The position numbers and the translations under genes are program-made. The notes beneath the pieces were generated by a model. It was not told the DNA's origin, ran no database searches, and saw nothing but the letters and a program-made list of their open reading frames with translations. A stretch of DNA of 36,526 nucleotides from a virus (Duplodnaviria > Caudoviricetes), in IMG/VR virus record IMGVR_UViG_3300020702_000010, positions 1-36,526 of that record; one strand, 5' to 3'. Each line of letters starts with the position of its first letter. Positions within the stretch are counted from its first letter, which is position 1. This document shows, piece by piece, positions 13,278-26,645 of the stretch.

Positions 13278-13547
13278 TTAGAGCAACTTTACTAGGGCGG
13301 CGACTAGTCCAGCTTGAGCTAGTAACATTCCAGCAATCCACTTAACCATATCAAATTTGACCTCATTGATTTTTGCCTCAAGGCGCAATTCTGTTTCTTT
13401 TAATCGGCTATCTAATGTTTCATTTGAAACCAAAGTGTTTTGAGCTTCAGTAATAACTCTAATAACTGCTTCTGATTGCTTTTGGTCAAAACCCGCTGTC
13501 TTTAGCTTGTCCACCATGTCTAGCATATCAAAGGTAATGGTTGTCAT
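13278..13547 (-). CDS. DUF1640/CCDC90-like coiled-coil membrane-anchored protein (paralogue 1)
   Basis: ITFDMLDMVDKLKTAGFDQKQSEA head, LKETELRLE stalk, and C-terminal TM MVKWIAGMLLAQAGLVAALVKLL. Confidence 0.85.
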   Translation of the reverse strand: MTTITFDMLDMVDKLKTAGFDQKQSEAVIRVITEAQNTLVSNETLDSRLKETELRLEAKINEVKFDMVKWIAGMLLAQAGLVAALVKLL

Positions 13548-13576: not shown

Positions 13577-13819
13577 TTAAAGCAACTTAATCAGTGCGGC
13601 AATCATAGCGAACTGGCCTAGGGCTAAACCTATCCCCCATTTAACCATTCTGTTTTCCATTTCGTAAAGTCTGGCATCAAGATAATCGCGGGTAACGGGT
13701 AATGATTCTGCTTGCGCTTCTTGAAAGGCTTCTGCTACCGCTTCGGCCTTATCTTCTTCAAAACCTGCGTCACGTAATCGCCTGATAAATTTATGTGTGT
13801 CAAAAGTGATAGCACTCAT
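13577..13819 (-). CDS. DUF1640/CCDC90-like protein (paralogue 2)
   Basis: ITFDTHKFIRRLRDAGFEEDKAEA...MVKWGIGLALGQFAMIAALIKLL; AAGGAG RBS. Confidence 0.85.
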   Translation of the reverse strand: MSAITFDTHKFIRRLRDAGFEEDKAEAVAEAFQEAQAESLPVTRDYLDARLYEMENRMVKWGIGLALGQFAMIAALIKLL

Positions 13820-18088: not shown

Positions 18089-18364
18089 ATGAAAGCAAAA
18101 TTATTAAGTCGTATTAAACAAACCTATGGTGATGGCCTTATCGAGGGCGTTATCTGGGAAGTACCTGAACCTGTGCCGCCATCAGAGCATCGTATTAAGT
18201 ATCGATTAGTTTATATCGTTGCGGGTGTGCGGGTTGTTGGTTATGACAATAAGCGCGGCAAAGGCGACCATAAGCATCTGCTTGATGATGAGTTGCCTTA
18301 TATTTTTTGCGATCCAGGTGCGCTAATGCGTGATTTTATGAATAATGTTAAGGGGGTTAAGTAA
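18089..18364 (+). CDS. DUF6516/TumE-like putative toxin
   Basis: IWEVPEPVPPSEHRIKYRL...RVVGYDNKRGKGDHKH; TATAAT lies 7 nt before the ATG. Confidence 0.8.
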   Translation: MKAKLLSRIKQTYGDGLIEGVIWEVPEPVPPSEHRIKYRLVYIVAGVRVVGYDNKRGKGDHKHLLDDELPYIFCDPGALMRDFMNNVKGVK

Positions 18365-18732
18365 TGAGTACACTAAATATAACCATAGGTGATGCGCCTG
18401 AATTGGCGCTTGAGCGCTTTGTGACTACTTTTGACTCTGCCTTAAAGGGCGATACTGTTGAGCCTTTTTTTAGTATTGGCTTTGACAATATGTCACAGTT
18501 TGGTGCGGTGTTTACGCCTAAGCGCTGGGAGCTGGTTGAGGCGCTAAAGACCTTTGGGCCTGTGACTATCTATGCCCTGGCTAAACAATTAGGCCGCCAC
18601 TATGCCAATGTACACAAGGATGTGACGGCTCTGTGTGAGTGGCTGGTGATAGAAAAGGACGAAGATAATAAAGTCTTTGTGCCTTGGGATGAGATCGATG
18701 TGCGCTGGCCGCTGTTGAAGCAAGTGGCTTGA
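18364..18732 (+). CDS. HTH DNA-binding protein (HVO_A0114-like), putative antitoxin
   Basis: VFTPKRWELVEAL...TIYALAKQLGRHYANVHKDVTAL...VPWDEI; TAATG coupling to the upstream gene. Confidence 0.8.
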   Translation: MSTLNITIGDAPELALERFVTTFDSALKGDTVEPFFSIGFDNMSQFGAVFTPKRWELVEALKTFGPVTIYALAKQLGRHYANVHKDVTALCEWLVIEKDEDNKVFVPWDEIDVRWPLLKQVA

Positions 18733-18867: not shown

Positions 18868-19050
18868 TTAAAGCTTTCCTGTTAAGCGTAATAACAGGCT
18901 AGTGATAATGGTTATTTGTAATAATCCTACAGCAACAACCCATTTAACTAGATCGGCTTTAGTCTCTGCAATTTCTTTTTGTAATTTTAACTGCCCTTCG
19001 TTAGTGATTAATAAGGCTATAGCTTGAACCTGTGGTGGAGGGGTACGCAT
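18868..19050 (-). CDS. Head-less DUF1640-like protein (paralogue 3; possibly a truncated remnant)
   Basis: LKLQKEIAETKADLVKWVVAVGLLQITIITSLLLRL gives the stalk and TM; the FDT head is missing. Confidence 0.55.
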   Translation of the reverse strand: MRTPPPQVQAIALLITNEGQLKLQKEIAETKADLVKWVVAVGLLQITIITSLLLRLTGKL

Positions 19051-19069
19051 AGAGGGGTAAGGGGTACTA

Positions 19070-19462
19070 TTTTTTTATACCCCCCTAACGCGGCTGATTT
19101 TTATAGTAATTTAATTTATTTTTTATGCTTAAGCTGGGGGGGGTATTTTTTAAATAAGGGGGGTACGTTTTTTTTATACCCCCCTAACGCGGCTGATTTT
19201 TATAGTAATTTAATTTATTTTTTATGCTTAAGCTGGGGGGGTATTTTTTAAATAAGGGGGGTACGTTTTTTTTATGCCCCCCTAACGCGGCTGATTTTTA
19301 TAGTAATTTAATTTATTTTTTATGCTTAAGCTGGGGGGGTATTTTTTAAATAAAGGGGGTACGTTTTTTTTATACCCCCCTAACGCGGCTGATTTTTATA
19401 GTAATTTAATTTATTTTTTATGCTTAAGCTGGGGGGGGTATTTTTTAAATAAGGGGGGTACG
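19070..19462. repeat. Tandem repeat, 4 x 98-99 bp, homopolymer-rich
   Basis: TAACGCGGCTG recurs at 19086, 19185, 19283 and 19381. The G-run is 8,7,7,8 long, and copy 3 has two substitutions. Confidence 0.97.
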
Positions 19463-19968
19463 CTTTCGGTATTGGTATGTTCCTCACGGTAACAATCCGC
19501 ATCTTTGCAGCTTTGCTTGATAGACAGCAAGTAGTCGTCGAACAGGTGTATATTAGTATTAGCTACGGAGTACAAGGCACTAGGCTCTTTTACCCCCCCC
19601 CCCCCCACATTTTCCGCAGGGCTTGTCAAGGCTTTATGTTCGGCTTTTACAGGGTTAGTTTGTGACTGAGCTTGTACTAATGTGTTTACCATCTGCTCAA
19701 TTAGCGCCCTATTTTCTTTGCTTAATTTTTCAATATTTTCATAAAGAGGGACTGGTTTTTCAGCTTCCTCAAAGCCTCTTAATGCAGCTTCTGTTGTGCC
19801 AAGTCCTTTGGCGAGCTTTTGAATTGTGCTACTTCGTGGGTCGCCATGAGTTCCTGATAAGAATCTTTGAATGGTTGGCTGAGGAACGCCTGAATTTTCA
19901 GACAATACTGTAGCGTTCCATCCTCGGGAATCCATTTCATTTTTTAAATTTTTTCGTAACGTAGTCAT
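19411..19968 (-). CDS. cI: CI-like repressor (XRE HTH), no S24 peptidase domain, internal G14 tract
   Basis: LSENSGVPQPTIQRFLSG..DPRSSTIQKLAKGLG. Divergent from cro across the operators. The start is most likely ATG 19968. Confidence 0.85.
   Translation of the reverse strand: MTTLRKNLKNEMDSRGWNATVLSENSGVPQPTIQRFLSGTHGDPRSSTIQKLAKGLGTTEAALRGFEEAEKPVPLYENIEKLSKENRALIEQMVNTLVQAQSQTNPVKAEHKALTSPAENVGGGGVKEPSALYSVANTNIHLFDDYLLSIKQSCKDADCYREEHTNTESVPPLFKKYPPQLKHKK
19593..19606. repeat. C14 (G14 on the coding strand) homopolymer in the repressor gene
   Basis: ta-CCCCCCCCCCCCCC-acat; encodes VGGGGV. Confidence 0.95.
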
Positions 19969-20050
19969 ATAACAAATATACGTTTGATTATTTAATCCGT
20001 CTAATACGTTTGCGTTTGACAAATATACGCTTTCGTATATGATGCTATCC
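19969..20050. promoter_or_regulatory. OR control region: PRM, PR and three operators
   Basis: PR is TTGACA (20016-21)-16-TATGAT (20038-43). PRM on the minus strand is TAGACG-17-TATATT. Operators are ATACGctttCGTAT (20025-38), ATACGtttgCGTTT (20004-17) and a degenerate ATACGtttgatTAT (19978-91). Confidence 0.8.
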
Positions 20051-20242
20051 ATGAACATACAAAATGCCTTAAATGAAATTAGAAATAGCGGCCTTACTGA
20101 TAAGGAAATCGGCGTTATTGTCGATATTCCACAGCCAACAATAAATAGGCTTAGAAATGGTGTGCATGTAGAAACGTCACATACAAGAGCAATGGCAATA
20201 CAGAAATTGGCTCAAGAAATCCGCTCCGACATCTTTGGATAA
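20051..20242 (+). CDS. cro: Cro-like HTH protein
   Basis: GLTDKEIGVIVDIPQPTINRLRNG; the recognition helix QPTI.R matches that of CI. Confidence 0.85.
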   Translation: MNIQNALNEIRNSGLTDKEIGVIVDIPQPTINRLRNGVHVETSHTRAMAIQKLAQEIRSDIFG

Positions 20243-20244
20243 CC

Positions 20245-20559
20245 ATGGCACACGATAAGCGACACGACAGCCTTAGCGATCCTTACAATGGCTCGATTAG
20301 GCTTTCGGACATTCTATCCACTCTAGCGGACTGTCCAAAAATGTTATCCGGTACGCTATTGACTCGATATCCAGTAGATTCAAGAATGAATTTAGTGGTG
20401 GCAGATCTGTATTTAAACAGCATTCCAAAACACCTGCTCCAAGTGTTCGTGTGTTTTCAGATTTTTTTAGCATTGCTGATACGGTATTGGCTACTTTTTC
20501 GCGGTGCTGCTGTTCTTTTGCGCTTAAAGCAAGCATTTCGGGGTTGGCGATATGGATGA
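20245..20559 (+). CDS. Sense ORF overlapping antisense gene 1 (possible overprinted ORF)
   Basis: The ATG is 2 nt after the cro stop. Stop-free across almost all of 20297-20572(-); hydrophobic/basic C-terminus. Confidence 0.4.
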   Translation: MAHDKRHDSLSDPYNGSIRLSDILSTLADCPKMLSGTLLTRYPVDSRMNLVVADLYLNSIPKHLLQVFVCFQIFLALLIRYWLLFRGAAVLLRLKQAFRGWRYG

Positions 20560-20572
20560 GTGCGTAAGTCAT
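20297..20572 (-). CDS. Antisense cargo gene 1, hypothetical
   Basis: Natural amino-acid composition; preceded by the repeated AACAGGTAAAAAC leader. Confidence 0.65.
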   Translation of the reverse strand: MTYALIHIANPEMLALSAKEQQHREKVANTVSAMLKKSENTRTLGAGVLECCLNTDLPPLNSFLNLLDIESIAYRITFLDSPLEWIECPKA

Positions 20573-20574
20573 GT

Positions 20575-20618
20575 GTTTTTACCTGTTATTAAAGTGAGTG
20601 GTTATGTCTGATAATTTT
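20575..20618. repeat. 44-bp cassette junction repeat, copy 1
   Basis: GTTTTTACCTGTTATTAAAGTGAGTGGTTATGTCTGATAATTTT, identical to 20961-21004. Confidence 0.95.
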
Positions 20619-20960
20619 TACGCTGATTTTTATGCTGACAAACTGGGCCTTAATGAGCCTAGTGAAATCATTAGTGAGGGGGTCCGGTATCGGGTACCGC
20701 AAGCACTAATTGCTCCACTTCGTGATGAGTTGCATGCCTTGATAGTGCCTTCAGAATCCCTGCCGCTTGTTGAGATCCGTTCTGCTGAAGACTTTGCGCC
20801 TCTGCGTTTAAGGCTAAGAAAACGTGCGCTTTCGAGGATACGTCTAAACGCACTAATTCTGCGACTACCACTTTTGCAAAAGCTAAGAAAGCATCTTCCA
20901 GCTCTTCTGGTGTTACTGCAGGTGCTTTTGGTGCTGTGGCATGGCTGGTTGTTGTCATAA
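20604..20960 (+). CDS. Sense ORF overlapping antisense gene 2
   Basis: Starts MSDNF..ADKLGLN.PS inside the repeat; its TAA shares a base with the antisense start codon (CATAA). Confidence 0.4.
   Translation: MSDNFYADFYADKLGLNEPSEIISEGVRYRVPQALIAPLRDELHALIVPSESLPLVEIRSAEDFAPLRLRLRKRALSRIRLNALILRLPLLQKLRKHLPALLVLLQVLLVLWHGWLLS
20671..20958 (-). CDS. Antisense cargo gene 2, helical hypothetical protein
   Basis: Repeated leader; aligns without gaps to cargo gene 3. Confidence 0.7.
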   Translation of the reverse strand: MTTTSHATAPKAPAVTPEELEDAFLAFAKVVVAELVRLDVSSKAHVFLALNAEAQSLQQNGSQQAAGILKALSRHATHHEVEQLVLAVPDTGPPH

Positions 20961-21004
20961 GTTTTTACCTGTTATTAAAGTGAGTGGTTATGTCTGATAA
21001 TTTT
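20961..21004. repeat. 44-bp cassette junction repeat, copy 2
   Basis: Identical to 20575-20618; the similarity continues for ~35 bp further. Confidence 0.95.
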
Positions 21005-21424
21005 AACGCTGATAAATTAGGCCTTAATGGGCCTAGCGATCCACCGATAGACATCGCTTTCTATGAAAAGTTGAAGCCTTGGCAATTTGAAGCCTACCTG
21101 CTTAATGAGCGACTGATAGGGCTTGATCTCTTCGGCTTGTCTACCGGTGGCGTGCATTATGCTATTTCCGGTAGCCTAGTTCGCGAGCATCAAAAGACGC
21201 TGAATAACGTGCCAGCCCCACTAAAAAGTTACCCGATTCAGTTTGTTCATGACTCCGATGTGTATCAGCGCGTACTTGAAAAGCATCGCTTAGACGCGCT
21301 GGTGTCATTAGGTTGGTGCGGATTAGTTCGTCAATCAGTACTTGTAGTGCGGCTTGAAAGCAAACTTGCTGCTCTGTCTGCAGCTGTGTTACGTAAATTT
21401 CTGAAGCATTTTTTTCGGTCATAA
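20990..21424 (+). CDS. Sense ORF overlapping antisense gene 3
   Basis: Starts MSDNFNADKLGLNGPS and ends at CATAA (21420-24). Confidence 0.4.
   Translation: MSDNFNADKLGLNGPSDPPIDIAFYEKLKPWQFEAYLLNERLIGLDLFGLSTGGVHYAISGSLVREHQKTLNNVPAPLKSYPIQFVHDSDVYQRVLEKHRLDALVSLGWCGLVRQSVLVVRLESKLAALSAAVLRKFLKHFFRS
21162..21422 (-). CDS. Antisense cargo gene 3, paralogue of gene 2
   Basis: The MTEKNASE start follows GGGTAAAACTT; an extended -10 TGTTAGAAT lies upstream. Confidence 0.7.
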   Translation of the reverse strand: MTEKNASEIYVTQLQTEQQVCFQAALQVLIDELIRTNLMTPARLSDAFQVRADTHRSHEQTESGNFLVGLARYSASFDARELGYRK

Positions 21425-21505
21425 GTTTTACCCGTGTGTTGGTTGAAGGTTGTGAGAAATTGGATTCTAACATACGGGTATTTTTTAATTTTTAAGGGTT
21501 AGGTC

Positions 21506-21706
21506 ATGGCTAGAGAAACTGCAGAACTCAGGGCACAGTTGCCGCGCTTTATTATTGATGTCTTAGATGGTCAATGCGCGGCTTCGGGCGAATGTCGCAC
21601 TAAGTTAGTGGCGGATATTCTGGGTGAGTGGGCTAATCAACGACACCGTGAGGCTATTTTAATTATTAGAGTCGCCGGTAACAAGCCGACTGAGTCGGAT
21701 AAGTAG
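21506..21706 (+). CDS. Small DNA-binding protein in the CII position
   Basis: ELRAQLPRFIIDVLD...RTKLVADILGEWA is a ribbon-helix-helix-like pattern. Confidence 0.55.
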   Translation: MARETAELRAQLPRFIIDVLDGQCAASGECRTKLVADILGEWANQRHREAILIIRVAGNKPTESDK

Positions 21707-21727: not shown

Positions 21728-23161
21728 ATGATCGCCCTTTACGATTATCAAGATACCGCGATTGACAGCTTGCGCCAGGCTTATCAGTCTGGCAAAAAAG
21801 CCCCGCTGCTAGTGATGCCTACGGGTGCCGGTAAAACCGTGTGCTTTACTTATATGGCGGAACAAGCTCAGGCTAAAGATAAGCGCGTGTTGTTGGTGGC
21901 GCATCGTAAGGAGTTGGTTAACCAGATCTCTGCGGCGCTGAATGCTTGGGGTGTGAGTCACGGCATTATTACCGCGGGCGCTAAACCGACTCGGCATAGC
22001 GTGCAAGTGGGTATGGTGCAGACTTTGGCTAATCGGATTAAGTTGGATAAGGCTGGGCGCTTTAAGTTTGATTTGGTGATTATTGATGAGGCGCACCACG
22101 CTACCCAAAACAGTACCTGGGGTGCGGTGCTGCAACACAATAGTCGCGCAAAGCTGTTAGGCGTTACCGCAACGCCATGCCGTTTAGATGGCAAGGGTTT
22201 GGGTGTTGAGGCGCAGGGCTTTTTTGATGCGATGGTTTTAGGGCCTAGCGCTGCTAACTTGGTGGAGCGGGGTCGTTTAGCGCGTCCGGTGGTGTATGCA
22301 CCGGCTCAGGGTTTGGATTTGTCGGCGGTTAAGCGCCGTGGTGGTGATTATGTGGCTTCGCAGTTGGTGGCGGCGGTGGATAGATCAGCGATTACCGGCG
22401 ATGCCGTGGCGCATTATCAGCGTTATTGCGATAAGCAAGCGGCCATTGCTTTTACTATTACCGTGGCTCATGCCAGCCATGTGGTTGAGCAGTTTAAGGC
22501 CGCAGGTTATCAGGCGGCGGTGTTAACCGGATCCACGCCGGATAAGGAGCGTGCGCAGATGCTTAAGGATTTGGGCAACGGTAAGCTGCAAATTTTGGCG
22601 AGTTGTAATGTGGTCTCTGAGGGTACCGATATTCCTACGGTGGCGGCGGCTATTTTGCTAAGGCCGACTGAAAGTTATGCGCTGGCCCAGCAACAAATTG
22701 GTAGGGCGTTACGGGCCGCACCTGGTAAAGATAAGGCGATTATTTTAGATCATGCCGGCAATGTGCTGCGCCATGGGCTGCCAACGGATGAGGTTGAGTG
22801 GTCTTTAGAGGGTATGCAGCGTAAGAAGCATAAAGGCGGCTCGCTGGTTAAGACTTGTAATGGCTGTAGCGCCTTGGTGAGCATACGCACGACTCAGTGT
22901 TTGGAGTGTAATTTTGTCTTTCATGCGCCGATAGCAACTGAGCGATCTTTTATTGAAGCTGAGGGTGATTTGGTAGAAATGACGCCTGAGCGGTTGTTAG
23001 AAATTCGCTTGCGCAAACGTCAAGAATTAATCAGCGCTAAAACAAAGCAGCAGTTAGTGGCATTAGGGCAAGAGCGAAATTATAAGCATCCGGCCTTTTG
23101 GGCGGATCGGATTATTGAGGGTCGGGCCAGTTATAGAGCCCAGCAAGGGAGTCATGTGTGA
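21728..23161 (+). CDS. SF2 DEAD/DEAH-box helicase
   Basis: LYDYQ, MPTGAGKT, DEAHH, TATP, QQIGRALR and a C-terminal CxxC-CxxC. Confidence 0.93.
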   Translation: MIALYDYQDTAIDSLRQAYQSGKKAPLLVMPTGAGKTVCFTYMAEQAQAKDKRVLLVAHRKELVNQISAALNAWGVSHGIITAGAKPTRHSVQVGMVQTLANRIKLDKAGRFKFDLVIIDEAHHATQNSTWGAVLQHNSRAKLLGVTATPCRLDGKGLGVEAQGFFDAMVLGPSAANLVERGRLARPVVYAPAQGLDLSAVKRRGGDYVASQLVAAVDRSAITGDAVAHYQRYCDKQAAIAFTITVAHASHVVEQFKAAGYQAAVLTGSTPDKERAQMLKDLGNGKLQILASCNVVSEGTDIPTVAAAILLRPTESYALAQQQIGRALRAAPGKDKAIILDHAGNVLRHGLPTDEVEWSLEGMQRKKHKGGSLVKTCNGCSALVSIRTTQCLECNFVFHAPIATERSFIEAEGDLVEMTPERLLEIRLRKRQELISAKTKQQLVALGQERNYKHPAFWADRIIEGRASYRAQQGSHV

Positions 23162-23174
23162 GTTTAGTTTTGGT

Positions 23175-23477
23175 CTATAACAATTTAACCAGGGCGGCGA
23201 CAATGCCAATAGAAAAGGCCATGAGCGTGCCTAGCTTAATCGTTAGGCGCTGCTCCATCTGGATAAAGCGCGCGTCTACTTGGGCAAAGCTTGAGCCCAT
23301 TTCACGCCGCAATACTTCCATTTCTCGATGTAGGTCCTCTTTAGTCACTAATTCCTTAAGGTTGACTTCAAGCGCTTCTGCTAAGACTTCAGCCTCTGCT
23401 TCGGCTTGTTTGTCTGGTACGCCTGCGGCTTTAAGTCGATTGGCATATTTTAAGGTGTCGAAAGTAATGGCGGCCAT
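23175..23477 (-). CDS. DUF1640/CCDC90-like protein (paralogue 4)
   Basis: MAAITFDTLKYANRLKAAGVPDKQAEA...LVTKEDL...RLTIKLG...AALVKLL; GGAG RBS. Confidence 0.88.
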   Translation of the reverse strand: MAAITFDTLKYANRLKAAGVPDKQAEAEAEVLAEALEVNLKELVTKEDLHREMEVLRREMGSSFAQVDARFIQMEQRLTIKLGTLMAFSIGIVAALVKLL

Positions 23478-23508
23478 TAGGGTTGCTCCAAGGTTTATGT
23501 ATGTTTGA

Positions 23509-23772
23509 TTATAGTAGTTTGACTAGCGCAGCAATGACGGCAACGGCCACAGAAAGCATGGCGCCCATTTTTATGGTTAAGCGTAGCTCTAATTCTTTTA
23601 AATCACGTTTGGTGGAAATATTATCAAGATCATATTCATGTTTAGCCTGCTCAAGTGTTGAGGCAACCGCTGCTTTTTGTAAGCGGGTGATGGTTTCGGC
23701 TTGTTGGTCGCTAAAGCCTGATGATTTTAGCTCGTTAAAAAATTCATGGGTATCAAAGGTAATGGCGGCCAT
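23509..23772 (-). CDS. DUF1640/CCDC90-like protein (paralogue 5)
   Basis: MAAITFDTHEFFNELKSSGFSDQQAE...TKRDLKELELRLTIKMG...AALVKLL. Confidence 0.88.
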   Translation of the reverse strand: MAAITFDTHEFFNELKSSGFSDQQAETITRLQKAAVASTLEQAKHEYDLDNISTKRDLKELELRLTIKMGAMLSVAVAVIAALVKLL

Positions 23773-23826
23773 TAGTGTTCCTATTCAGTTTAATTCTTAT
23801 CATAGTTTAGCACAGGGTTTTAACAA

Positions 23827-26394
23827 ATGAGCCTGCTGTCTAGCGCTGATCAAGATAGTTTTTTAAGGGCGTTATGCGCTGCAGGTTTGCAGGCGCATAG
23901 CGCTAAAGGTTTGGAGGCTGACGGCAAAATCCATCGATATCGCGTCGAGGGTGATAAGTCGGGGTCTTTGAATGGCTGGTATGTGCTGTTTGTTGACGGC
24001 AGTTTATCGGCTGGGGCGTTTGGCAGTTGGAGTACCGGTGCTCAGCATCAATGGTGCGCTAAGTCTGAACAAACCTTGTCACCACAAGAACGCGAACTGT
24101 GGCGACGCAAACAACAGGAGGCTAAGCTGGCACGAGAAGCAGAGCTTAAGGTTGTTAGGCAACAAGCCTCTGAAAAGGCGACTTATTTGGAAGGCATTGC
24201 GCAACTGGCGGCGGTCGGTGGTAGTGATGTAACAAAGGGGGCGACGCATCCTTATTTGTTAGCCAAAGGGGTTAAGCCTTACGGGGTGAAGATCTTGAAG
24301 AAGATGCTCTTGGTACCACTGCGGAACGCGTCCGGGGTGACTACCAGTGTGCAGTTTATTCAAGAAGATGGTAGTAAACGCTTTATGACGGGGGGTGAGG
24401 TTGTTGGTAGTTATTTTTCCATCGGTCAGCATCCGTCGGTGTTATGTGTGTGTGAGGGTTTTGCAACAGGGGCAAGTATTTTTGAGGCCACGGGCTTTCG
24501 GGTTGCAGTGGCGTTTAATGCGGGCAATCTGGCTGCGGTAGCGAAGGTAATGCGGGACAGGTTTCCGGCGTTTACCATTATTATCTGTGCGGATAATGAC
24601 GTTAAAAAGGAGGTTAATACGGGTCTGATTAAAGCGGCAGAAGCTGCGGAGCAGATCCACGGCATGTTGGCGGTTGCCAAGTTCCAAGAATCAGAATTAA
24701 TTAAGGGTAAGTGTCCAACTGACTTTAACGATTTACACCAGTTGCACGGCTTGAGCGCGGTGCGTGAACTACTTGAGAGTGTGATGGCTGCACCTGAGCA
24801 ACACCTTAAGGCGGCCATGCCTGAAACAAAGTCGGTCAAGCAGACGCTTAAAGACTTTGAGCTGTTGATTGATGAGTCTGATGACTTTGATTTTTTGACC
24901 GATGAGTTGTTGGGGCGCTTAGCGGTGTCTGATTTGCCGCCGCCTGCCTTGCATCATTTGACGGCTAAGGCGGCTAAGAAGGCGAGTGTGCCTAAGCATT
25001 CGTTGTTGGAGGTTGTCAGTGCTTATCGTAATGGCGACAATGCTAAGAAGCTGGGGGATTATGAGGATAGGATTAACGAGCTTAATCTGAGTCATGCGCT
25101 GTTGCCGATTGGTGGGCGCATGGTGGTGATGAACTTGGGCTATGATCCAGAAACAGAGCGCAAGCTGTTTACTTTTTCGGCTAAGGCAGACTTTGAGATG
25201 CGTTATTGCAATCGTAAGGTCTTCAGTAAGGGCGAAGAGGTGGGCTTGGGTACGTTCTGGATGAATCATGCCCGTCGTGCTGAGTTTGATGGCATGGTGT
25301 TTTCACCAGGGTTAGATCGGCCGGGCTATTTAAATTTGTGGACCGGCTGGGGTGCTGAGCCTAAGGCGGGTAACTGCCAGCTGTATTTAGACTTTGTCTA
25401 TGATGTGTTGTGTTCGGGTGACGGTGATTTGTTTGATTATATTATCCGTTGGTCTGCGCATTTGTTGCAACGCCCCCAGGAGTTGCCAGAAACGGCGCTG
25501 GTGTTTCGGGGTGCTGAGGGTATTGGTAAGAATACTTTTGTAGATCCGTTAAGTGACATTGTCGGCCGTGAACATTTCTTAACCTTGACCTCGATGGGGC
25601 AAATTACCGGGCGTTTTTCGGGGCACATGGCCACGTCGCTGTTGGTGTTTTGTAATGAGTCGGTGTGGGGTGGTGATAAGTCGGCGCAAGGCGTACTTAA
25701 ATCCATGATTACCGATAATTTGCAGCCTATTGAGTTTAAAGGTCGCGATTTGGTGATGGTTAAAAGCTATCGCCGGATGATTTTTGCGACTAATGAAACG
25801 TGGGCTGTGCCAAGAGGCGAGGGTGATCGCCGCTATGTGGTTACTGATGTCAGTGATAAGCGTAAGGGTGATTATGCTTATTTTAAAGCCATCCGTGACG
25901 AAATGAGTGCGGGCGGTACTGAGGCGTTGATGGCTTATTTATTAGCCATAGATATTTCCCAGTGGCATCCGCGCTCTATACCTGGCAAGTTACAACTGTG
26001 CGGCTGGGAGCTTAAGATTCAATCGGGCGGTTCTATCGTGCAGTGGTGGTTTGATATGTTACAGCAAGGCTGGTTAAAGACTGCGCGTTATGCGGAGGAT
26101 GATGTTTGGCCGCCGATGTTGTTGGTTGCTGAATTGCAAGCGGCGTATTTGGCGTGGTGTGTGAGTTATAAGATTACCCATCCTGAGCATTCGGTGGTGG
26201 TGGGTAGGAAGCTTAAAGACTGGGGTATTCATAAGGTTAGGCCGCGTCATGACAACCCAAACCGAAGTGCTTTTTATCAGTTGCCTGATTTGGAGCAGTC
26301 TCAAGAGCTATTTTCGACGCGCTTTTCTATCCCCCCCGCGGTGTTTGAAAGCGTTGAGCTTGTGGCTGGCCATGGTGACCATGGCGGAGGCTAA
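23827..26394 (+). CDS. Toprim primase fused to an SF3 helicase (DUF5906/P4 alpha-like)
   Basis: HPYL..KG, CEGFATG, CADND and DFND (Toprim). GAEGIGKN Walker A, LVFCNE and IFATN (SF3). Confidence 0.9.
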   Translation: MSLLSSADQDSFLRALCAAGLQAHSAKGLEADGKIHRYRVEGDKSGSLNGWYVLFVDGSLSAGAFGSWSTGAQHQWCAKSEQTLSPQERELWRRKQQEAKLAREAELKVVRQQASEKATYLEGIAQLAAVGGSDVTKGATHPYLLAKGVKPYGVKILKKMLLVPLRNASGVTTSVQFIQEDGSKRFMTGGEVVGSYFSIGQHPSVLCVCEGFATGASIFEATGFRVAVAFNAGNLAAVAKVMRDRFPAFTIIICADNDVKKEVNTGLIKAAEAAEQIHGMLAVAKFQESELIKGKCPTDFNDLHQLHGLSAVRELLESVMAAPEQHLKAAMPETKSVKQTLKDFELLIDESDDFDFLTDELLGRLAVSDLPPPALHHLTAKAAKKASVPKHSLLEVVSAYRNGDNAKKLGDYEDRINELNLSHALLPIGGRMVVMNLGYDPETERKLFTFSAKADFEMRYCNRKVFSKGEEVGLGTFWMNHARRAEFDGMVFSPGLDRPGYLNLWTGWGAEPKAGNCQLYLDFVYDVLCSGDGDLFDYIIRWSAHLLQRPQELPETALVFRGAEGIGKNTFVDPLSDIVGREHFLTLTSMGQITGRFSGHMATSLLVFCNESVWGGDKSAQGVLKSMITDNLQPIEFKGRDLVMVKSYRRMIFATNETWAVPRGEGDRRYVVTDVSDKRKGDYAYFKAIRDEMSAGGTEALMAYLLAIDISQWHPRSIPGKLQLCGWELKIQSGGSIVQWWFDMLQQGWLKTARYAEDDVWPPMLLVAELQAAYLAWCVSYKITHPEHSVVVGRKLKDWGIHKVRPRHDNPNRSAFYQLPDLEQSQELFSTRFSIPPAVFESVELVAGHGDHGGG

Positions 26395-26633
26395 CAATGA
26401 CCATAGATAAAAAAAACCTCAGCCCGCGCCGTTCGTGGGGTGGTCATAGCGGTCATAGCGACCATAGCACTAAATCGCCCACGTCTGACAGTGCTATAGG
26501 CATACCCTAGCCATAGGTAGGGTGTTTGTTATTTTAATTATTTAAAAAAGATCTATGACCGCTATGACCGCTATGACCACACTAATAGATTCAATAACTT
26601 AGGTGGCCATAGCTTGACCATAGCGACCATGGT
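26368..26633. promoter_or_regulatory. Putative replication origin with convergent iterons
   Basis: About 12 copies of G(G/A)(T/C)CAT(A/G)G in both orientations around an AT-rich core (26527-26553), directly after the primase-helicase gene. An IHF-like TTCAATAACTTA is present. Confidence 0.75.
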
Positions 26634-26645
26634 TAGAGAGGATTT

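Follow-up and report, generated by a model that had tools for sequence, protein, structure and literature searches.

The window considered here is a whole 36.5-kb phage contig (36,526 nt) recovered from freshwater metagenomes. The host is presumably a methanotroph, since a prophage carrying the third of the cassettes described below sits in a Methylococcaceae genome bin. The cI/cro switch is composed of a leftward cI-like repressor gene (19411–20058, minus strand; HTH_3, E = 1.8e-7, and PHROG repressor families) and a rightward cro-like gene (20039–20242, plus strand; phrog_6831, E = 9e-11). The cI-like coordinates are those of the longest ORF, and the true start probably lies further in. A putative PR-like promoter (TTGACA-16-TATGAT, 20016–20043, plus strand) agrees with the consensus at 11 of 12 positions. 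The gene that closes the region (21506–21706, plus strand) had no match in Pfam or PHROG and is called the cII-position gene from its position only; its homologues come after the hairpin in related loci. Helicase and primase genes lie downstream of it.

Three cassettes and their junctions

Three cassettes sit between the cI/cro switch and the cII-position gene, each pairing a sense ORF (P1–P3, plus strand) with an antisense cargo gene (M1–M3, minus strand). All six ORFs reported in the preliminary description are present: P1 (20245–20559, 104 aa) and M1 (20297–20572, 91 aa), P2 (20604–20960, 118 aa) and M2 (20671–20958, 95 aa), and P3 (20990–21424, 144 aa) and M3 (21162–21422, 86 aa). With M1–M3 nested antisense between cro and the cII-position gene, the region has the layout of a noncontiguous operon. 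The finer geometry described at that time is also correct: codon position 1 coincides in all three overlaps, P1 starts 2 nt past the cro stop, and in cassettes 2 and 3 the sense TAA shares its T with the antisense CAT (CATAA). Between the P1 stop and the M1 start there remain 13 nt, and the sense strand has untranslated gaps of 2, 44, 29 and 81 nt. P3 consists of about 57 non-overlapping residues and a tail overlaid on M3. The M3 frame could open at 21473; its homologues begin MTEKN (21422), and all 7 aligned loci keep the CA of the reverse-complemented start codon unchanged. P1 contains a 19-residue hydrophobic stretch at residues 67–85 (KD 2.19) and P2 a C-terminal hydrophobic 19-mer (KD 2.05).

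Searches of Pfam and the PHROG families returned no match for any of the six ORFs. No DNA homologue of cassettes 1 and 2 was found outside this phage, the helicase relatives L002–L004 are without a cassette, and searches of cultured phages for the region, for the TDRPDL protein discussed below and for the hairpin found no relatives. An unstranded RNA contig over 21123–21393, of depth 2 and from a single RNA run, is not evidence of expression. In run X17, the more abundant (dominant) cassette 1 allele has a replaced interior over window positions 20265–20535; both ends are kept, the length of 265 letters compared to 271 is an in-frame difference, and the interior letters are not visible.

The minus-strand genes are real, since diverged protein homologues exist for each: at 91% and 71% identity for M1, at 73% for M2, and at 90% and 70% for M3, which has a pN/pS of 0.32. 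M1 is predicted to have a ferredoxin-like fold (pLDDT = 72) and M3 a helical bundle (pLDDT = 91). Fold comparison of the cargo gave non-specific folds, with no specific match for M1, and none of the three genes could be given a function. For M1, Cas2 and VapD were considered and set aside, since they appear only among many tied ferredoxin folds. M2 had no match in Pfam, PHROG or PADLOC, and PADLOC gave nothing better than E = 0.027, none of it convincing. A profile search with M3 over 1.84 billion proteins yielded one match, itself an input sequence, and Atlas matches for P3 and M1 were all below 0.9. A comparison of M2 and M3 does not establish paralogy. A distant homologue of M1, next to a transposase in a bacterial genome (L130:1495–1806), contains four stops in the register that this phage keeps open. 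By analogy with Olg1 of phage Fc02, the cargo would most likely consist of superinfection exclusion or defence genes.

Two features are absent from the preliminary description: an 86–98 nt junction repeat and a terminal hairpin. Copy 1 of the repeat (20568–20665) holds the M1 ribosome site, a -10-like hexamer (20619–20614, minus strand) and the P2 start; copy 2 (20954–21039), which folds only weakly, holds the M2 ribosome site, TAAAAT (21005–21000, minus strand) and the P3 start. The terminal copy begins 4 nt after the P3 stop and forms a conserved hairpin (21429–21480) that, together with its U-tract (to 21493), is terminator-like on the plus strand. The consensus of 12 loci folds at -19.8 kcal/mol on the plus strand compared to -0.1 kcal/mol on the minus strand, compensatory changes occur at 6 of its 17 pairs, and a U-tract mostly follows. 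A strand-specific stem and U-tract, as predicted here from sequence, are the marks of an intrinsic terminator. A simple terminator scan missed the hairpin because its loop is long, and a search of Rfam gave no match.

The hairpin arms hold a leftward extended -10 (TGTTAGAAT, hexamer 21469–21464) and the M3 ribosome site. Read on the minus strand, the motif TGnTA(G/A)AAT, a predicted promoter, is found in 12 of 12 aligned loci, and the -10-like hexamer ends 41 nt before the ATG in all three M genes. The minus-strand RNAs of M3, M2 and M1 are accordingly predicted to have their 5' ends near 21457, 20993 and 20607. The internal junctions have lost the strong hairpin (-9 compared to -23.6 kcal/mol for the terminal copy) and kept the hexamer, with the next sense start inside. 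Since the internal repeats have both of these features, the predicted leaders of the M1 and M2 messages would overlap the start sites of P2 and P3.

Stop depletion and selection on the sense frames

In this phage, no register is harder to keep free of stops than the position-1 register, which has 0.070 stops per codon. Among 85-codon windows of its ordinary genes, 5 of 6529 are stop-free in this register, compared to 109 of 6554 and 396 of 6529 in the other two. The codon shuffle proposed in the preliminary description was carried out by synonymous resampling from phage codon usage with the proteins fixed, and gave P(no stop) = 0.010, 0.016 and 0.067 for M1, M2 and M3. A stricter null, in which each gene's own synonymous codons are permuted, gave only 0.06, 0.08 and 0.49. 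The joint probability of three open frames is approximately 1e-5, or 2e-3 under the stricter null. In M1, 12 residue pairs beyond the P1 stop had been counted at which a stop is avoided; this number holds for pairs with an A-starting second codon, and all stop-susceptible pairs come to 14. Five cargo homologue proteins contain no residue pair that forces a stop, which is a weak test. It is confirmed that open sense frames run over three real minus-strand genes, and do so in the register richest in antisense stops.

Cassette 3 occurs alone, at 85% DNA identity, in an unrelated prophage (L011) whose cro, cI and helicase genes are unrelated to those of this phage. The sense frame stays open in the L011 P3, which starts 3 nt after cro. 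Over 43 non-overlapping codons, the two P3 sequences differ by 14 synonymous and 8 replacement codons (positions 7/4/19), a pN/pS of 0.16. The non-overlapping part of P3 is under protein selection, and thus the sense frames are not pure spacers. Together with the stop depletion and the open L011 frame, this value backs the earlier claim of selection on both strands.

Within the overlap, synonymous divergence of M3 is 0.17 compared to 0.63 in the adjoining part (Fisher p = 0.007), and it is similarly depressed in the pair L014/L027. The low divergence suggests either that residues of the P3 tail matter too or that recombination has occurred. The pN/pS of the overlap (0.74–0.80) equals that of a non-open control frame (0.73), and the P3 structure model reached a pLDDT of 0.38. 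Each sense ORF probably serves two purposes: its N-terminal part makes a real protein, and its tail is kept open.

Cargo exchange and sense chains in other prophages

Copies of the DNA of 21419–21500 are also present in other prophages, where the adjoining minus-strand genes differ and include KTSC and zinc-finger cargo; in 8 of 13 loci the sense stop lies at the cargo start codon. Seven genome matches with three mismatches were left out of this locus set, and 9 of 17 viral pattern matches, which were without cro/cII context, were dropped. Each of the 13 hairpin loci (window 21434–21502, for example) also has a short sense ORF that crosses the hairpin and usually ends near the cII-position start; no null was computed for these ORFs. 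An int-alpA RNA (RF02996) scored above the gathering score at L038:4664–4730.

In the hairpin-bearing, Methylococcaceae-linked set, strictly coupled or unbroken chains cross 5 of 8 cargo families to within 30 nt of the cargo start, compared to a null mean of 0.7 and a maximum of 4 in 2000; the gene end of L034 is uncertain in this count. The L017, L018 and KTSC families are without a strict crossing chain, and it follows that crossing is not obligatory.

Through a conserved sense protein, a GC-rich clade was reached whose analogous hairpins are mostly without a U-tract. After 7 of 67 matches were dropped (no CAT, or truncated), this clade provided 60 usable cassettes in 25 cargo families, one of which, of 11 codons, was left out. 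The cro-coupled frame enters the cargo in the position-1 register in 21 of 24 families, and 18 of 24 are crossed with hand-picked starts, or 16 of 22 by an automatic rule, compared to null means of 5–6.7. Sixteen crossed families were reached in 1 of 1000 simulations. A control with real repressor-side genes (91 of 441 real compared to 533 of 4386 resampled spans) showed the null to be approximately 1.7-fold too lenient; after scaling, the null is about 10 of 22 families and p is approximately 0.01. Many chains switch frame mid-gene at ATGA, GTGA or TGATG, which keeps ribosome cover but not one protein, and some sense N-termini are paired with more than one cargo family.

An unannotated sense family, CLITDRPDL...WTT, adjoins an antisense KTSC gene (L056:2501–2770, L064:2438–2722) in both AT-rich and GC-rich prophages. 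One member, in L027, adjoins a different cargo.

A second relay lies further along the same operon, between the helicase and primase genes of this phage (23158–23830, plus strand), and crosses both of the operon's other antisense genes. Frame A (23158–23508) and frame B (23501–23830) are joined by a GTGA overlap with helicase, an 8-nt overlap with each other and an ATGA overlap with primase (-4, -8, -4). They span two antisense CCDC90/DUF1640-like genes (23175–23477 and 23509–23772) and have almost no sequence outside them. The open frames over these genes are unremarkable on their own (P = 0.31 and 0.20); none of five co-oriented CCDC90 paralogues is stop-free in that register (Fisher p = 0.048). 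Five CCDC90-like sequences, whole genes or fragments, lie in the window, and each is on the minus strand: 13278–13547, 13577–13819, 18868–19050 and the two given above.

A proposed ribosome relay, its rivals and its relatives

The frames, their depletion of stops, their coupling to cro, the conserved promoter motif and plus-strand hairpin, and the exchange of cargo were observed directly. From these we infer how the block is transcribed, translated and terminated and whether Rho is involved. The interpretation to which we lean, by a narrow preference, is that the region is a variable cargo slot in a temperate-phage early operon, in which minus genes are expressed by the lysogen and stop-free sense frames keep ribosomes on the cro transcript until the hairpin. 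M1–M3 would be transcribed in the lysogen from their own leftward promoters while CI shuts PR, and the predicted leaders of the M1 and M2 messages, whose sequence is the complement of the P2 and P3 start codons and ribosome sites, may damp leaky sense translation. Upon induction, ribosomes would leave cro and restart on P1, P2 and P3 in turn, covering RNA that Rho would treat as antisense; Rho is described as suppressing untranslated and antisense RNA (PMC12360218). This cover would keep the cro transcript from terminating before the cII-position and replication genes. A ribosome terminating at the P3 stop would also cover the 5' arm of the hairpin.

Ribosome continuity is favored because of the frame switching and the tight coupling. 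Against it, the gaps of 29–81 nt require fresh initiation, and against a role for Rho, the excess of C over G that is usual at Rho sites is missing from the sense strand. The preliminary description had proposed that the sense frames are 'bridge' ORFs, and this idea survives in part: chains cross unrelated cargo above the null, often with a change of frame mid-gene, but the 43 codons of P3 are under selection and 3 of 8 related families are uncrossed. Pure bridging also does not predict the register bias (21 of 24). Since P3 residues are selected, the register is biased and a sense family travels with KTSC, real proteins are probably made as well, and sense genes with a dual purpose and relay tails are, on a slight balance of probability, preferred to pairs that act purely at the protein level.

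That second reading is a tentative one, clearly behind the first. It holds that the sense ORFs are kept for their proteins, either as dual-coding pairs in which both products exclude phages, as with Olg1 and Gp10 of Fc02, or with a sense product that neutralises the cargo on induction, as with Ith and Ati; continuity would then be ordinary operon coupling. The low pN/pS of the non-overlapping part of P3, the depressed synonymous change in M3 and the hydrophobic 19-mers of P1 and P2 are consistent with it, as is the association of TDRPDL proteins with KTSC cargo in both Methylococcaceae-linked and GC-rich loci. The register itself gives two proteins most freedom (PMC2542354), and Fc02 gene 10/olg1 shares both position and register, with exclusion by both products (PMC9936078). 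However, frames switch inside cargo genes, the overlap evolves like the non-open control, the P3 model is poor, frames A and B have nearly no sequence of their own, and certain sense N-termini are found with several cargo families.

Of the two explanations offered in the preliminary description, bridging is better supported than the other, in which the sense products are membrane toxins silenced by protein-coding antisense mRNAs as in type I-like addiction modules. No positive evidence was obtained for toxins, and this explanation is unlikely. P1 and P2 do have hydrophobic 19-mers and net positive charge, and the antisense-over-ribosome-site geometry fits for P2 and P3, whose start sites the M1 and M2 leaders would cover given the predicted transcript ends. 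However, the Leu/Arg-rich composition is partly forced by the register, Leu and Arg being its commonest residues in ordinary genes, and relays split such tails into different frames. No promoter belonging to the P ORFs themselves is evident, and the one upstream of them is repressor-controlled, so they would be off in the lysogen anyway. Type I toxins are short and hydrophobic, typically under 60 aa, and have their own stable transcript; P1–P3 are 104–144 aa, lie in the cro operon and match no toxin family.

Less probable again is a slot that serves as a nursery for new genes, where a fixed promoter, ribosome site and CAT-AA geometry turn the antisense of a sense tail into cargo. It would explain the shared register and the many orphans, and it is in keeping with 25 cargo families among 60 cassettes, the 8 of 13 loci with coincident sense stop and cargo start, and the one or two homologues of M2 and M3. 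However, the KTSC cargo is an old Pfam family, and the four same-register stops in the remote chromosomal homologue of M1 point to import followed by stop loss. Most improbable, and largely refuted already, is that the sense frames lie open by chance, as shadows of the minus genes: the M3 permutation result and the somewhat lenient nulls allow for it, and the joint probability under either null, the conservation and selection seen with L011 and the recurrence over unrelated cargo all oppose it.

A broader version of the relay interpretation is speculative, and we consider it doubtful. It would make the hairpin and promoter a widespread unannotated socket for backward genes, in which translation replaces N-type antitermination, the relay opens the terminator, and cargo mRNAs pair with relay starts, adding a second, RNA-based lock that holds back lysis in the lysogen. 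A real relay would account for the tolerance of phages to accessory genes that run backward inside an essential operon. Annotation pipelines usually drop one strand of overlaps, and thus a class of phage ORFs and a hypervariable cargo site are easily missed. The cargo of the slot also offers ready candidates for exclusion or defence genes, because in the one pair with this layout that has been published both products exclude phages.

That pair, gene 10/olg1 of the Pseudomonas phage Fc02, is the closest published case. The gene after ner is overlapped antisense by a gene that is transcribed in the lysogen from a distal promoter, and Gp10, found in the pellet fraction, and Olg1 each exclude phages when plasmid-expressed (PMC9936078). 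As in this phage, a sense gene directly after the cro equivalent (ner) is open over an antisense gene in the position-1 register. According to the Fc02 record, gene 10 starts 13 nt after ner with an N-terminal part of its own, runs over a 7.96-kDa olg1 candidate in the same register, and stops 1 nt before the olg1 start codon; beyond it, a 42-codon frame is joined to the following gene through ATGA. Unlike this phage, Fc02 is transposable, has a single pair, and has an upstream element without a strand-specific hairpin. The accessible text of the Fc02 paper reports exclusion by both products and does not mention a relay, the register or selection (PMC9936078). M2 compared to Olg1 gave a shuffle p of 0.027, the best of six comparisons, with an hhalign probability of 0.5%, which does not establish homology, and the other comparisons of Olg1 and Gp10 with cassette proteins revealed none.

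In λ, the leftward promoter PRE and the terminator tR1 lie between cro and cII, and PRE yields RNA antisense to cro. There is no cargo in the λ interval; PRE depends on CII, and tR1 is overcome by N/nut. Unlike PRE, the promoter here resembles a constitutive extended -10 and is placed inside a long hairpin. Translation-gated read-through occurs in P4 kil/icd and P1 c4-icd-ant, where RNA pairing controls ORF translation. Gated termination is also described for tnaC-type leaders, in a source that names tR1 as the prototype Rho site (PMC12360218), and in Gifsy-1 orf45-anrP coupling a translated ORF controls read-through (PMC4825925). The leaders of all four systems are short and, unlike P1–P3, do not lie over an opposite-strand protein gene.

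Tha/Ith in a cI operon (PMC11087260) and Tai/Ati in a late operon (PMC11364771) are noncontiguous operons with a proven protein inhibitor as partner. They share with this phage an antisense gene with its own promoter (here predicted) inside a phage operon, with expression that switches between lysogeny and lysis; near-complete coding overlap and coupled frame chains are not described in the accessible portions of those reports. The phase-1 (123:132) opposite-strand overlap is known to be both the most abundant phase and the one under least constraint (Rogozin 2002 and Kingsford 2007, via PMC2542354). The same register is used here, with whole genes spanned in series. The architecture is real, selected and widespread, and is a variant of the noncontiguous operon. 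A single pair has been published before. The literature searched, which takes in few subscription papers, gave no report of a sense-frame relay across antisense cargo, and neither the relay statistics nor the hairpin socket nor the tandem array turned up in it.

Several other features of the window may be noted. Directly downstream of cI, approximately four tandem 98-nt AT-rich units with G and C runs occupy 19038–19457; the final unit and the end of the cI ORF overlap, and the region may be assembly-sensitive. A TumE-like toxin gene followed by an HVO_A0114-like HTH gene (18089–18732) is a probable toxin-antitoxin pair. Several short repeats of ATGACCGCT/GACCATAGC are located 3' of primase (26400–26640) and may represent a replication origin.
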